This document shows positions 1-33,115 of a stretch of 64,000 bases of DNA, piece after piece. Both the position numbers and the translations under genes were made by a program. The first letter of the stretch is position 1, and the number at the start of each line of letters is the position of its first letter. The notes under the pieces are model-generated. The model did not search any database. It was not told where the DNA came from and saw nothing but the letters and a program-made list of their open reading frames with translations. This DNA is from Cyanidioschyzon merolae (lineage: Eukaryota), in assembly GCA_000091205.1 (NCBI GenBank), contig AP006492.2. The stretch is one strand, 5' to 3'.

Positions 1-602
1 CGCGCTACGCGCCGCGGTTCAACCCCGTCGAAGGAGCCTTTTCGATCGTGAAACGTAATGATAGCTCCACTGGGCGAATTGCTGAAACATTCAGTAAACG
101 TAAGGTACATGAGCACATATTGATTTCCTTCCACAAGTCCTGCTCGCTTCGGGAAGGTACTCATAAAACGACATTAAGATGCGCATTCATTTTTGAAGCA
201 AAAAATCCAAGGGATAGGTATGGACGTGCAAGTTGGAGATCCTGGAGGCTCGATGTGTCGCCGCCTACCGGGAAAAGCGACAAAATTCCCTTCTCGCCTC
301 CCATCGAGGGAAGAAGAGCAGTTAACCAAGTAGATAATGATTGGGGATAGCCAAGAAAAGGTGTTTTCGCCCGGCAGTACGTTGGCGAGACTCTAGTCGC
401 ACTAAGCGCACGAGTTCTAGGAATCCTTGGAACGGTTCGTGCAAGTAGAGGCAATAAACGCATCGAGTTCGTGAACCGAAACTCCAACGCCGCCATCCGT
501 ATCAGACGAAATGCGGTGCGAAAGACGAGACCCGAATTGCTGATGGCATCCATGTTTCTGGGGCAGCCTTTCAGGCTCGAAGTGTGCCTGGATCTGAACT
601 GA
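1..602 (+). pseudogene. Fanzor/TnpB-like nuclease, C-terminal fragment (5' end cut by the window edge). It carries a RuvC-III-like motif and an in-frame TAG at 348-350.
   Basis: Frame 3 translates ...FNPVEGAFS...GNKRIEFVNRNSNAAIRIRRNAVRKTRPELL...LEVCLDLN*, ending at the TGA at 600-602. It aligns with the intact copy at 53856..54908 ([31 protein letters not shown]...KVELYEKK). The NAAxxI motif is the TnpB/Fanzor RuvC-III hallmark. A TAG at 348-350 interrupts the frame. The antisense ORF 161..646 is the opposite-strand frame of the same segment. Confidence 0.6.
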
Positions 603-1620
603 AACCGATAGGAGTCGGCTGGTCGCAACAGGCCGGAAGGCGCCAATTCGTGAGCGTATATTTACCCTCCATGGTCGTAGAACGTTTTCCGTTTCACTGA
701 CGATCGATAGGGAGCTCGTACATGCACACAGCAATGCTTGGGACTCCTCCACCTGCCATTAGAACCGAACGACATAGGTTGCTCTGCAACTGCTTCCTTT
801 TCCTCTCTGTTACCCTCGATATGAAATACGCTCAAAAATCATGGACTAAGAGCGCCGTGGCGAGCAGTCCAAGCATGTTGATTGCAGCGTCCAGGTCGCG
901 CTTCTGTGCTCAATCAGGATCTGCGCTATTCATGTCATCCACGGGAGGTACGTGCGATCGCCACCTCACTTGCAGGTTTCATCTTCTTTGTCCACAGCTT
1001 CGGTATGCTGCTTACGACGATGACACCTGCGCGCGGTCGGATGTGCCCGTATTCATATGTATATACATCGGAGATCCCCCGACTTCGACCGCCAGCCTTT
1101 GGCGCGAAAACGCGTGCTGCATCGCTCCGCAAACGCCTGTGACGGGTACCGAAGGCTCCGGTTGATGCCTCCTCGTGCGTTCCTTGCGGCCGGTGTCGCA
1201 CGCCTCCATCAAGCGCTTGTCTGGGGCGATCCGCTCGGCGAGTACGCCGTCCGCTGGACGTGTAGGCGTACGCCGTCGCATTCGAGAGCGCCTCACAAAA
1301 GGCGATGTCGTGCCCGATGGACGGTGCGCACGAGTTGCACAGAAACAGCGATACAGAAAACAAGAAGCATGCGTGATTCGACCATGCCACACACGAGGCA
1401 GAGGAAAAGCCTCGAGACTCTTTTCTACGAACTGAATAATGATACCAGTTGTTTTTGGAACCATCGTTCGAGGGCGTCACGAATCACCCTGACGCGGTTG
1501 ACGGTACGAATTCCAGCGGCAAAGCGTCGATTGCGTCACTCCGAAACCACAATCCGGAATCCTGGAACTGCACATGGATCCGTGAGCCCTTATTGCATCC
1601 ATTTTGGACATCGAGGCTGT
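347..1620 (+). repeat. Dispersed repeat family 'A', copy 1 (about 1.27 kb). Its 5' part overlaps the Fanzor C-terminal fragment. The 3' about 830 bp (787-1620) is shared with copies 2 and 3.
   Basis: Near-identical to 31350..32706 and, from position 787 onward, to 4486..5400. This is visible in the duplicated ORF translations, e.g. ORF 722..1165 vs ORF 4438..4866 vs ORF 31729..32172 with only a few amino-acid differences. No recognisable protein in any frame. Confidence 0.8.
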
Positions 1621-2449
1621 ATATTTATGAAAACTTGCGGAAAAGAAATCGTGATGCAGATACAGAGCGAGTCGTTCAGTGTTCCATTTTAATCTTTGTT
1701 TTCCTTTCGACCATGGAGCCTCGTGCGCACCCAGCGGCACGCGCGTTGATGACGCCGGATCGATTCACTGTATCAGGGCCTCGTGGAAAAGCGAGCGCTA
1801 CCCGAAAACAAGTGAGGGATCTCGTCCGCTCAAGAGGTGCTACCAGTTTCGACTAATCCAAAAAAGGCACTGCTGCAACAGTCGAGGCTTTATCCAGCGA
1901 ATCTCCGGGTGCCGATCCGACCGTAATGCTTCGTGTCAGTCCAAAGCAGCCAATCAGGATCCTCCGGAGGCGATTCCACTTTCCACGAGCCCTCGGCCAA
2001 CGACCTCATCGAGGTAAGGAGTCTGGTCGATCGAGCGCCATGAGTCGTCCTCTATGGGCCGAGTATACAGCAGACGCTTCCTGAGACGCTGGATGCCCGC
2101 CACTGCCGCTGCCGCTGCCGCTGCCGCAATGGTCGTGGTCGTGGTCTACGTTCTGAGAGACAGCGGCCTTGCGACGCCCCGCGCACGTCGGCTTGAAGCG
2201 CAACAATGCCTGGCACGAAGCAAGGAACGCTCTTGGGTCCCGGCTCTAACACCAGCTTGCGTAGCCAAGCCTGCCGACGGTGCGGAACAACCCGCTGGAG
2301 GAACTCGGCAAACCGAAGCCAGCTCGCCGGCTCGGCGCTCCCGTCAGGTTCGTGCAAGTGTGCGCTCCGTGGCAGCCGCGTCCATCGTATAGCGCTCCTG
2401 CATTGCAACAGCGCCCGGAACGTGGTTTTCTGAGACGCACACCATAGGC

Positions 2450-2790
2450 CCGCGCGCACATGCGATGTGCATGCGGATCGCGCGCCTCTGGGCAGCAGCA
2501 TTGCAGCAGCGGTCAGAGCGTGATCCAGTGGTATATTCTGGCAGCGCGCGCACATGCGATGTGCATGCGGATCGCGCGCCTCTGGGCAGCAGCATTGCAG
2601 CAGCGGTCAGAGCGTGATCCAGTGGTATATTCTGGCAGCGCGCGCACATGCGATGTGCATGCGGATCGCGCGCCTCTGGGCAGCAGCATTGCAGCAGCGG
2701 TCAGAGCGTGATTCCATGACACTCACCACAGATGCGCGTACAGCCGATGTGCATGCGGATCGCGCGCCTCCGTGCAACGTGTACGTTCAT
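2450..2790. repeat. Tandem repeat, 94-bp unit x about 3.3, upstream of GAPDH.
   Basis: cacatgcgat recurs at 2457, 2551 and 2645 (period 94). The unit is gcgcgcacatgcgatgtgcatgcggatcgcgcgcctctgggcagcagcattgcagcagcggtcagagcgtgatccagtggtatattctggca. ORFs 2460..2711 and 2554..2850 share an identical N-terminal 53 aa because of the repeat. Confidence 0.85.
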
Positions 2791-3027
2791 CGCTTTCGCG
2801 TATCGAGGAGGCGCCTTGGCAGTGCGCTGCCCGATGCGCCCACGAGGTGATGCAGTACCTCCACAGCTGATACGGCCCGCGTTGGTGATGCGGACGACGC
2901 ACCCTGCTCACAACGAGCCGCCGATACAACTCCGTCAATTGCATTGGTGTTGCTCACGAGCGAAATCAGTGCTTTCTTGCACGTTTTGCGCCCATCGGTA
3001 GAAACGTTCGTTTAGTAGGCTACTGGT

Positions 3028-30915: not shown

Positions 30916-31099
30916 GGCGGTTGCGTGCGAACACCAAACGACTCATTCCCGCCACGCGCGGCAAATGCGGCACGCACGCCGCCGCCGTGCATGCATGGGT
31001 TCCCGCCATGCAGACGCCAGATCTGTGTCTGCTTTGTCTCTATGGGAAATGTTGTGGGCATGGTGTACCCAAATTAGAGAAAATCGAACGATTCCACAT

Positions 31100-31609
31100 G
31101 TAGGCTTTCAGCGCAACAGAGTGCCGCCACGGTTGCGTGTCATCAAATGCGTTTTCACGGTTTTCAGCAGATGCGTACGAAGCGCATTCATTTGAAGGTA
31201 TCAAAAATCCACGGGGAAGACATGGACATACAAGTAGAGGATCCTGGATGGACGTCATAGCCGACTGCTCGAAAAAAACGAATAAAGCCGTCGTCTCGGT
31301 GACTGTCCAGCGACATAGAGCAGTGACGAAGACGAGAGAGAAGGAGAGTGGAGATAGCCAAGAAAAGGTGTTTTCGCCCGGCAGTACGTTGGCGAGACTC
31401 TAGTCGCACTAAGCGCACGAGTTCTAGGAATCCTTGGAACGGTTCGTGCAAGCAGAGGCAATAAACGCATCGAGTTCGTGAACCGAAACTCCAACGCCGC
31501 CATCCGTATCAGACGAAATGCGGTGCGAAAGACGAGATCCGAATTGCTGATGGCATCCATGTTTCTGGGGCAGCCTTTCAGGCTCGAAGTGTGCCTGGAT
31601 CTGAACTGA
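31100..31609 (+). pseudogene. Fanzor/TnpB-like C-terminal fragment (the older, diverged part of repeat-A copy 3), ending at the TGA at 31607-31609.
   Basis: 31349..31609 is near-identical to 346..602 (EFVNRNSNAAIRIRR frame). 31100..31349 is a diverged homologue of 100..346. The antisense ORF 31255..31653 mirrors 161..646. Confidence 0.55.
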
Positions 31610-32706
31610 AACCGATTGGAGTCGGCTGGTCGCAACAGGCCGGAAGGCGCCAATTCGTGAGCGTATATTTACCCTCCATGGTCGTAGAACGTTTTCCGTT
31701 TCACTGACGATCTATAGGGAGCTCGGACATGCACACAGCAATGCTTGGGACTCCTCCACCTGCCATTAGAACCGAACGACATAGGTTGCTCTGCAACTGC
31801 TTCCTTTTCCTCTCTGTTACCCTCGATATGAAATACGCTCAAAAATCATGGACTAAGAGCGCCGTGGCGAGCAGTCCAAGCACGTTGATTGCAGCGTCCA
31901 GGTCGCGCTTCTGTGCTCAATCAGGATCTGCGCTATTCATGTCATGCACGGGAGGTACGTGCGATCGCCACCTCACTTGCAGGTTTCATCTTCTTTGTCC
32001 ACAGCTTCGGTATGCTGCTTATGACGATGACACCTGCGCGCGGTCGGATGTGCCCGTATTCATATGTATATACATCAGAGATCCCCCGACTTCGACCGCC
32101 AGCCTTTGGCGCGAAAACGCGTGCTGCATCGCTCCGCAAACGCCTGTGACGGGTACCGAAGGCTCCGGTTGATGCCTCCTCGTGCGTTCCTTGCGGCCGG
32201 TGTCGCACGCCTCCATCAAGCGCTTGTCTGGGGCGATCCGCTCGGCGAGTACGCCGTCCGCTGGACGTGTACGCGTACGCCGTCGCATTCGAGAGCGCCT
32301 CACAAAAGGCGATGTCGTGCCCGATGGACGGCGCGCACGAGTTGCACGGAAACAGCGATACGGAAAACAAGAAGCATGCGTGATTCGACCATGCCACACA
32401 CGAGGCAGAGGAAAAGCCTCGAGACTCTTTTCTACGAACTGAATAATGATACCAGTTGTTTTTGGAACCATCGTTCGAGGGCGTCGCGAATCACCCTGAC
32501 GCTGTTGACGGTACGAATTCCAGCGGCAAAGCGTCGATTGCGTCACTCCGAAACCACAATCCGGAATCCTGGAACTGCACATGGATCCGTGAGCCCTTAT
32601 TGCATCCATTTGGACATCGATCTGTACATCTAAAGAGCGTTCGGGAAACTAATCGAAAAGCAAGATGCGAGTAAGCAATTCGGTGCTCCTTCTTCATATG
32701 AAGCGA
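31350..32706 (+). repeat. Dispersed repeat family 'A', copy 3 (full young unit, about 1.36 kb), in the MCM6 upstream region.
   Basis: Near-identical to 347..1620 and 4486..5400. ORFs 31729..32172, 31889..32149, 32064..32633 and 32182..32442 duplicate those of copies 1 and 2. Confidence 0.8.
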
Positions 32707-33115
32707 GTCGATTTTTTCGAATCATGCATACGAACCACGAGTTCCGCCATCAAGCGATAATTATTGAAACCAGGAGAGCTTGCATTATCATGCTGCACAA
32801 GACCTTGATATTCCGCCAGCATCCACCTTTAAATCCCTCCGATAATCGTGGCTCGTTCGTATGCGTCTCCCAATGCCTGCCACTAGCAGTCGCCCGCGAA
32901 TGGTGTCTACCCATCTACGAAACGTCGTTCGCGCAGGAGCTGACAATGCGGGTCTCGTGGACGCGCCGCCTCCCAGTGCGTGGAACAGGACCTCGTTATT
33001 CTTGCATTCGCGCTGCACAGCGAGGCACACATCCTCGCCAGTAAGGATCGCTTTTTATCTTTCTCGTATACCACGACTGCTGTTTGATTAGGTACGGGGG
33101 CCAAGTCTTCAAAAA

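Follow-up and report, generated by a model that had tools for sequence, protein, structure and literature searches.

The Fanzor-derived loci in a 64,000-nucleotide (nt) stretch of the Cyanidioschyzon merolae genome (contig AP006492.2; the whole stretch is called the window here) are, with a probability of about 85%, defunct remnants of a single, already described repeat family, that of the Fanzor1 element CMe-1. They comprise a near-complete copy, three shorter relics named B1, B2 and B3, and two highly diverged remnants named C1 and C2. All of the copies are broken, and their architecture is chimeric, with the Fanzor gene joined to parts of other elements. This mosaic make-up may hint at how the family moved in the past.

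The expansion of Fanzor repeats in C. merolae has been known since 2013, and the present finding adds little to it because the repeat family was published then. Bao and Jurka (2013, Mobile DNA 4:12, PMC3627910) list CMe-1A as the sole Fanzor1 family of C. merolae. They report about 150 copies with roughly 80% identity to a consensus of 3169 bp, whose encoded protein has 734 amino acids (aa). The element lacks terminal inverted repeats; target duplications are given as undetermined and the class as unknown. Its first 635 bp are 95% identical to the repeat TE-N2_CMe. The vehicle of CMe-1A, and the reason why its copies agree at the 3' end and differ at the 5' end, were left open in the same paper.

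A live copy of CMe-1 would encode a RuvC nuclease of about 730 aa. By homology to the assayed Fanzor1 proteins, this nuclease would be guided by RNA from the element's own 3' end and would cut DNA beside a short AT-rich motif. The element appears to carry no transposase of its own, and its movement would depend on a partner. In the window, the near-complete copy has a reverse-transcriptase element in place of its 5' module. B1, B2 and B3 can be read as internal-deletion derivatives of a chimeric DDE transposase-Fanzor unit, B1 and B3 lying in a 1.46-kb block that was probably duplicated later. C1 and C2 appear to be inverted copies of a 1.8-kb diverged derivative, and no copy in the window can make a nuclease.

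Membership in Fanzor1 and in the CMe-1A family

Searches of Pfam and the PDB with single sequences (a window open reading frame, ORF, or the relative P0029) return noise only, and direct searches with single proteins do not reach TnpB entries. Membership in Fanzor1 was therefore established with a profile of distant relatives. Among 1.84 billion representative proteins, a search finds 1200 relatives, many with lengths of 600-700 aa and 30-45% identity. The family profile A1 was built from 40 relatives, with P0029 as the first sequence of the alignment. Against the PDB it matches the three Fanzor1 proteins PpFz1 of Parasitella (9cf0, E=2.7e-21), SpuFz1 of Spizellomyces (8gkh, E=1.1e-11) and GtFz1 of Guillardia (9cer, E=8.1e-8), with no other notable matches beyond this trio. 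The alignment crosses the motifs DPGR, DEFRT and NRD.NAA.NI. The RuvC acidic columns D318, E490 and D559 (P0029 numbering) are invariant or at least 90% conserved in the 40 members, 16 of which also match the Pfam family Cas12f1-like_TNB.

The near-complete copy in the window is 73-78% identical to P0029. Its 350-aa ORF keeps the RuvC residues D24, E196 and D265, and the spacing from D to [TS][TS] is 174 residues (the Fanzor1 criterion is 125-275). Between RuvC-II and RuvC-III, both this copy and the CMe-1A consensus have two histidines and two cysteines, and no CxxC pairs. The CxxC...CxxC zinc ribbon is absent across the Fanzor1 clade of 1200 relatives; the C. merolae members carry HH...C...C instead.

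The CMe-1A consensus, taken from the 2013 supplement, was aligned to the window by blastn. The near-complete copy is 87.5% identical to it and B1, B2 and B3 about 75%, whereas C1 and C2 are too diverged to be aligned as DNA. In public metagenome contigs, a scan found 242 related loci; the set compared with the window here (L001-L082) consists of 82 loci from hot-spring metagenomes. An earlier note on this DNA had proposed a TnpB-like origin in Fanzor and an expanded family, and both proposals are borne out by the profile match to the solved Fanzor1 proteins, the RuvC triad and the metagenome loci.

Copies in the window and their decay

The Fanzor copies and fragments in the window are the following.

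53874-56504, minus strand: Fanzor module, near-complete pseudogene copy, CMe-1A consensus 687-3145 (blastn, tblastn, hmmsearch)
54839-55064, minus strand: three tandem units of about 75 nt in the Fanzor ORF, where the consensus has one (alignment edges)
387-710, plus strand: relic B1, Fanzor C-terminus (RuvC-III, catalytic D changed to N) with the 3' untranslated end of the element (tblastn, hmmsearch)
199-276, plus strand: B1 remnant of the Fanzor 5' untranslated region (UTR) and start codon region, consensus 884-960 (blastn, 76% over 79 nt)
19335-19750, plus strand: relic B2, the stretch of Fanzor that begins shortly after RuvC-II and reaches the 3' end, consensus 2737-2970 and beyond (tblastn, blastn)
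31134-31718, plus strand: relic B3, 5'-truncated twin of B1 with the Fanzor start remnant, C-terminus and 3' end (blastn)
41907-42859, minus strand: relic C1, highly diverged and internally deleted Fanzor remnant in the arm 41696-43506 (tblastn, hmmsearch)
48784-49736, plus strand: relic C2, same remnant as C1, in the arm 48137-49947 (tblastn, summed E=5.8e-17)
9624-9760, minus strand: fragment of the CMe-1A 5' module, TE-N2_CMe-like and non-coding, consensus 92-229 (blastn, 69% over 140 nt, E=4e-9)

By blastn, identity to the consensus is 85% over 687-2196 and 87% over 2117-3145 in the near-complete copy, and tblastn and hmmsearch cover profile positions 17-607. The family profile runs along it from 56160 to 54033, and the full-length metagenome relatives (586-593 aa) align to 54033-55866 in two frames. 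Two overlapping ORFs remain, one of 350 aa (53856-54908) and one of 198 aa (54859-55455). The gene is interrupted by in-frame stops at 55794, 55512 and 55464, and by a frameshift near 54870-54915, within the threefold tandem repeat. Between 50 and 80 related loci align across the copy, and their coverage falls sharply at about 53874-53905 and about 56504-56528. In the tandem repeat, the alignment starts cluster at 54839, 54915 and 54990 and the ends at 54913, 54989 and 55064, and consensus 2117-2196 matches twice. The repeated unit encodes an acidic linker of the type KHEEKKEA...QKVQDN just before RuvC-I, and different copies have one to four tandem units.

Just 113 nt separate the 3' end of the near-complete copy from the phosphoglucomutase start codon downstream of it (53761-53874). 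The promoter of that gene must lie in those 113 nt or within the Fanzor element. The metagenome contig L002 has the same Fanzor-phosphoglucomutase junction as the window, with 98% protein identity, so the insertion is shared within the population.

The three B relics are found by tblastn of the 350-aa ORF against the window. B2 matches at 19337-19564 (plus strand, E=1.3e-15, 54.5% identity over 77 aa), B1 at 408-584 (plus strand, E=6.6e-11) and B3 at 31415-31591 (plus strand, E=8.5e-10). With 269 family proteins as queries, the best E values are 2.7e-20 for B2, 1.2e-12 for B1 and 1.5e-11 for B3. B1 also matches the family profile (hmmsearch i-E 2e-6) and is 75% identical to the consensus, its 3' boundary being taken from the multi-copy alignment. 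For B2, the stretch 19335-19565 is 73.5% identical to consensus 2737-2970 over 234 nt, and the alignments of 50 loci begin and end sharply at 19335 and 19565. Relative to the metagenome locus L042, B2 lacks the equivalent of L042 positions 3554-5396. B1 and B3 match consensus about 2849-2971 at 73-78%, and also 826-969, which holds the Fanzor 5' UTR and start codon. They are therefore internal-deletion derivatives and not simple C-terminal fragments. All three relics have lost the RuvC-III aspartate, reading NRNSNAA in B1 and B3 and NRHLHAA in B2, where the catalytic D is replaced by H.

B1 and B3 are 98.4% identical over 380 nt, and B1 and B2 80%. B1 and B3 lie within a collinear duplicated block of 1465 nt (175-1627 against 31176-32632, 94% identity), which also holds an unrelated 920-nt repeat with a third copy at 4484-5403. 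A separate Fanzor "family B" was considered for the relics, as their tblastn identity to the full-length loci is only 59%, and was rejected: in DNA alignment the full-length loci show 79-82% identity to the CMe-1A consensus. This places the relics in the same family, as members that are older or more decayed and told apart by their 5' partner.

C1 and C2 are detectable at the protein level only. C1 has a summed tblastn E of 3e-14 and hmmsearch pieces at profile positions 45-102, 394-455 and 504-605. The two remnants lie in the arms of an inverted repeat (41696-43506 and 48137-49947), which are 1811 nt long, 99% identical and sharp-ended with unrelated flanks, and which enclose an EF-hand gene and CYP710. 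This inverted repeat may stem from two recent insertions of a non-autonomous element of 1.8 kb, or from inverted duplication.

As a separate observation, an isolated tblastn match at 50061-50204 (minus strand, E=1.4e-5) covers residues 3-50 of the short family-associated protein P0263. It is probably flanking sequence common with a metagenome contig, in the part of P0263 outside its Fanzor-matching stretch.

All copies in the window are thus dead, through stop codons, a frameshift, internal deletions or a lost catalytic aspartate. Among the 82 hot-spring loci, none has an uninterrupted full-length ORF, and the best have a single stop or frameshift.

The earlier note, whose stated interval is 1-32710, had counted five Fanzor loci in the 64 kb, a near-complete copy and four relics, all on the plus strand. 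The near-complete copy is real and lies outside that interval; three of the four relics are also real, the one placed at 16000-16500 is not Fanzor, and C1 and C2 were missed. The plus strand is correct for B1, B2 and B3, and wrong for the near-complete copy and C1, which are on the minus strand. The peptides quoted for the relics are present: GNKRIEFVNRNSNAAIRIRR occurs in 1-644 and 31100-31654, and MEKCQRS...NRHLHAAIHI is the ORF 19367-19648. The two C-terminal fragments, described as identical, agree to the 98.4% given above, with one residue differing in the quoted stretch. The range of about 70-99% identity fits the 71-98% measured between loci in pairwise DNA alignment. The extents of the relics need correction: 1-215 and 18419-19326, partly counted as Fanzor in the note, belong to a DDE transposase, and the 3' ends lie about 100-150 nt further on (at about 710, 19750 and 31718). 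The relics do sit between host genes, as stated, near the CTU1-like, RNA polymerase and MCM6 genes, B3 being 219 nt upstream of the MCM6 start codon.

Upstream partners and routes of movement

The partner sequences and the 3' terminus of the element are listed here.

1-215, plus strand: C-terminal tail of a Tc1/mariner/IS630-type DDE transposase (RYAPRFNPVEGAFSIVKR...), cut by the window start (translation, homology)
18419-19326, plus strand: decayed Tc1/mariner/IS630-type DDE transposase with putative helix-turn-helix and DD34E core (Pfam DDE_3)
56505-60575, plus strand: decayed reverse-transcriptase element, antisense to Fanzor and replacing consensus 272-686 (Pfam RVT_1)
60576-60877, plus strand: 3' tail of the reverse-transcriptase element, matching the CMe-1A 5' end (TE-N2_CMe module) in reverse complement (blastn, sequence read)
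53874-53915, minus strand: 3'-terminal hairpin (GGCGTCGTTCGAATTTCGAACGGCG) with an 11-bp stem (predicted fold, -15.9 kcal/mol)

Three partners are on the table as the vehicle of CMe-1A: a Tc1/mariner transposase, an HUH-type mechanism and antisense retrotransposition. The evidence that bears on the choice is the DDE relic upstream of Fanzor in several independent loci, the 3' hairpin and the 5' module made of a reversed retroelement tail.

The DDE relic at 18419-19326 lies directly upstream of B2 in the same orientation as Fanzor and is collinear with the metagenome loci L042, L043 and L036. The stretch 14-215 is 71% identical in DNA to 19133-19336, and the translations RYAPRFNPVEGAFSIVKR and FIPTCTQRFNPFEGVFSIV resemble the end of a DDE transposase. 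Pfam DDE_3 matches single copies at E=3.7e-4 (window) and E=8.4e-5 (L036), both below the cut-off. A three-copy majority reconstruction, stitched across frames by hand, scores 50.6 bits against the 28.6-bit cut-off (E=2.5e-13) with DD34E spacing, and gives weak hints of a Tc3-type helix-turn-helix. The junction between transposase and Fanzor (consensus about 826-869) is present in B1, B2, B3, L042/L043, L036, L019/L028 and L016, and L042 has an almost complete Fanzor gene behind the transposase relic. A precedent is known: a Mariner transposase is followed by Fanzor1 in one element in cases such as PUl-1 of Pythium ultimum (PMC3627910).

Behind the near-complete copy, the RVT_1 match is at E=7.8e-17 for the ORF 58443-59072, and a second fragment lies at 59056-59592. 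No endonuclease domain is visible upstream of the reverse transcriptase in three frames of 56505-58110. Consensus 85-271 aligns to 60764-60576 at 79%, and the tail ends in GTAAACGTTTTGTCAACG followed by A6. The reverse transcriptase domain together with this A-rich tail agrees with a non-LTR retrotransposon. The junction between reverse transcriptase and Fanzor is common to at least five loci (L003, L005, L008, L014 and L015), and L035 is an internal-deletion derivative of the reverse-transcriptase element, standing alone. Since this tail corresponds to the CMe-1A 5' end in reverse complement, the TE-N2_CMe module is the tail of the reverse-transcriptase element, and the run of T residues before CMe-1A would be its A-tail read on the opposite strand. 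TE-N2_CMe is probably a tail-sharing derivative of this element, resembling a short interspersed element. A tandem array of 27-nt units (60868-61191, about 12 copies) starts directly after the A-tail.

At the other end of the element, the copies stay conserved for about 175 nt beyond RuvC-III, after which conservation breaks off sharply. A hairpin is predicted for the final 25-30 nt in two sequence variants, CGTCGTTCGACTTTCGAACGGCG and CAACGTTTTTCTTTTGAAAGACGTT, with a stem of 10-11 bp in both, a few nt away from the element end. The terminal 40 nt of 48 copies have a mean minimum free energy (MFE) of -13.2 kcal/mol, compared with -9.3 kcal/mol for shuffled sequences (Wilcoxon p=1.5e-8). Rfam has no match in the Fanzor 3' region.

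Several points weigh against reading the loci as dead remains of CMe-1 that include derivatives of a DDE-Fanzor unit. Some genomic copies of CMe-1A are reported still to have intact ORFs (Bao and Jurka, PMC3627910), and therefore the family as a whole may not be extinct. RNAalifold predicts no pairs in 53 aligned 3' ends, decayed copies being poor material for it (per-copy folding of the terminal 40 nt was used instead), and the guide-RNA gene remains a candidate. Neither terminal inverted repeats nor TA duplications enclose the DDE-Fanzor unit in the window, L042 or L036, so the DDE relic could be an old co-duplicated neighbour; these copies are about 30% diverged, and terminal repeats may have decayed. 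Most family copies also carry a 5' module other than the DDE relic.

It is possible, if doubtful, that the Fanzor module was moved by a single-strand mechanism of the HUH type (Helitron2-like or IS200/IS605-like), rolling-circle or one-ended and anchored at the 3' hairpin. Such a mechanism would explain why the 3' ends are constant and the 5' modules interchangeable. The significant terminal hairpin, whose stem is kept in both variants, is consistent with it, as is the failure to find terminal inverted repeats and target duplications, here and by Bao and Jurka (PMC3627910). Fanzor1 is, moreover, known in Helitron2 elements of Chlamydomonas. The module proper starts at consensus about 648-687, with at least four different sequences joined upstream across loci, and 33 copies are 5'-truncated yet 3'-complete. 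Twelve copies have the reverse pattern, and 10 of these consist of the TE-N2-like module only. Random deletion in a compact genome could, however, also yield the 5' truncations, and no Rep or helicase gene is seen in the window ORFs or the related loci. Many copies carry a GC-rich palindrome at the module's 5' boundary, of marginal MFE against shuffles (p=0.058). The only hint of asymmetric terminal inverted repeats is a partial complementarity, judged by eye, between this boundary and the stretch that precedes the 3' hairpin.

Less likely is the spread of full-length CMe-1A by retrotransposition of an antisense transcript ending in the TE-N2_CMe tail, with Fanzor as 5'-transduced cargo. In 19 independent copies, T makes up 70% of the 8 nt just before the published element start, compared with a 22% background (p=6e-36), and in 18 of these copies a T-rich run of 3-9 nt abuts that start. 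The order on the plus strand of the window, RVT_1 ORFs followed by the reverse-complemented CMe-1A 5' end and A6, and the reverse-transcriptase/Fanzor junction at several loci agree with this proposal. In other loci the tail also occurs in the sense orientation, always with a terminal A-run (4-8 nt), and incidental tail-only copies end at consensus 166-618, like 5'-truncated retrocopies. The T-run could, on the other hand, be an AT-rich target motif; AT-rich target-adjacent motifs are reported for Fanzor1 in a 2026 review, and the T-rich flank is compatible with them. Flank similarity in eight full-length CMe-1A copies is not above that of mismatched pairs (permutation p=0.62), in a test of low power, with old copies and a fuzzy 3' end; target-site duplications that look convincing by eye in L033, L038, L053 and L021 are at chance level by this permutation. 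No copy is truncated within the Fanzor gene from the hairpin side, except two that end at consensus 2992, and many copies keep the Fanzor 3' end without the tail. The 2026 review finds no evidence of a Fanzor-encoding retrotransposon and no selective reason for one. If CMe-1A did spread in this manner, it would be the first Fanzor propagated by a retroelement, since the review knows of no such case.

A less far-reaching reading takes the Fanzor module as a promiscuous unit of 2.5 kb, delimited by the 3' hairpin, which has swapped partners at least four times. These partners would be the Tc1/mariner transposase, the retroelement tail in either orientation and the palindrome-bearing module. If one of the partners were shown to be the vehicle, this would bear on how an RNA-guided nuclease gene persists in a eukaryotic genome that is among the smallest and poorest in repeats, and would test the current view that Fanzor benefits only excising elements.

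The earlier note had proposed repeated waves of activity of a TnpB-like element, inserted at host-gene boundaries. That such waves include recent ones, made by a still-functional element with insertions aimed at gene boundaries, is improbable. Copies of different divergence do coexist (87%, about 75% and protein-only), and because these classes differ, the different ages are real. Two pairs are also 98-99% identical, namely B1/B3 and the 1.8-kb inverted arms, and the sharp ends and unrelated flanks of the arms are like those of fresh insertions. However, both pairs are coding-dead derivatives, and since B1 and B3 lie in a longer collinear duplicated block with another repeat, their 98% identity is no sign of recent transposition. 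Neither the window nor the 82 related loci have an intact ORF. The position of the relics between genes shows no sign of targeting; it is expected from selection alone, because insertions survive there in a compact genome.

Decayed remains of CMe-1 thus remain the preferred reading, and the proposal that the similarities are chance or low-complexity matches, which the earlier note had named as grounds for refutation, is virtually excluded, as it applies only to 16000-16500: the other loci have E values of 1e-10 to 1e-20 in a 64-kb search, collinear multi-segment matches and consensus DNA matches. The locus at 16000-16500 is rejected as a Fanzor relic. Its quoted peptides are present, with a resemblance to the family at chance level. 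Queries with one, three and 269 family proteins give no tblastn match in 15000-16600 (E<=0.01 to 10), and neither hmmsearch --max with the family profile nor DNA self-comparison by blastn finds anything at 16000-16500. A dispersed repeat lies near this locus, though not at it: 15402-15710 is 67-69% identical to parts of L036 (1522-1762) and L064-L066 outside the Fanzor elements, and its minus-strand profile match is non-significant (i-E 0.13).

Neighbouring genes and comparison with known systems

The host genes in the window are intronless and found on both strands; a tally of the listed long ORFs puts the coding share of the window at about 44%. Exact protein matches to C. merolae 10D are found for GAPDH (BAM80359), MCM6 (BAM80367), phosphoglucomutase (BAM80374) and CYP710 (BAM80373). 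A second CYP710 paralogue in the genome, BAM80381, belongs to the same 90% cluster as the CYP710 of the window. The neighbouring genes are as follows.

3028-4059: GAPDH (exact match to BAM80359)
16969-18141, minus strand: PP-loop/zinc-ribbon (CTU1-like) gene (Pfam)
19909-23673, plus strand: single-subunit RNA polymerase gene (Pfam)
28267-30915, minus strand: MCM6 (exact match to BAM80367)
37154-37225, minus strand: tRNA gene (sole Rfam match in the window)

The 920-nt repeat occurs in three direct copies (783-1693, 4484-5403 and 31790-32709), which are 97-99% identical and begin with TCTGCAACTGC. Two of them bracket the GAPDH gene. The ORFs of this repeat have no Pfam match, and the related loci contain only weak partial matches to it (L071 and L007). 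Tandem arrays are present at 2451-2732 (three units of 94 nt, upstream of GAPDH) and at 9888-10197 (about 20 copies of a 15-nt unit).

The CMe-1 copies resemble the assayed Fanzor1 proteins SpuFz1, PpFz1 and GtFz1 in profile similarity from REC/WED to RuvC and in the motifs DPG..N, DEFRT[ST] and NRD.NAA.NI. In contrast, the four-cysteine zinc ribbon is replaced by HH...C...C, CMe-1 is known from sequence alone, and every copy in the window is broken.

With the TnpB of bacterial IS200/IS605 elements, CMe-1 shares a RuvC nuclease with the same catalytic triad and a gene beside the 3' end of the element. Neither element has inverted repeats or target duplications, and each has a 3' hairpin in subterminal position. 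The C. merolae protein differs in being eukaryotic and about twice as long, and no Y1 TnpA is present.

The DDE-Fanzor unit is similar to PUl-1, in which a Tc1/mariner-type DDE transposase gene is followed by a Fanzor1 gene in the same orientation. PUl-1 has 24-bp terminal inverted repeats and TA duplications, neither of which is found in the C. merolae unit, and both C. merolae genes are decayed and mostly deleted.

The Helitron2 elements CRe-1, 2 and 3 of Chlamydomonas are likewise non-autonomous carriers of Fanzor1 whose 3' terminus forms a hairpin and whose 5' ends are fuzzy or alternative. They differ from the C. merolae copies, whose palindrome at the 5' boundary reaches only p=0.058.

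The closest known system is CMe-1A itself, of the same genome and family. The near-complete copy is 85-87% and the relics are 73-78% identical to its consensus, and terminal inverted repeats and detectable target duplications are absent in both. The window copy lacks consensus 272-686, has the reverse-transcriptase element in its place, and leaves the first 84 nt unmatched. The relics join Fanzor to a Tc1/mariner-type transposase relic, a junction on which the 2013 paper is silent, and the alignments suggest that the element extends 10-20 nt beyond its published 3' end.

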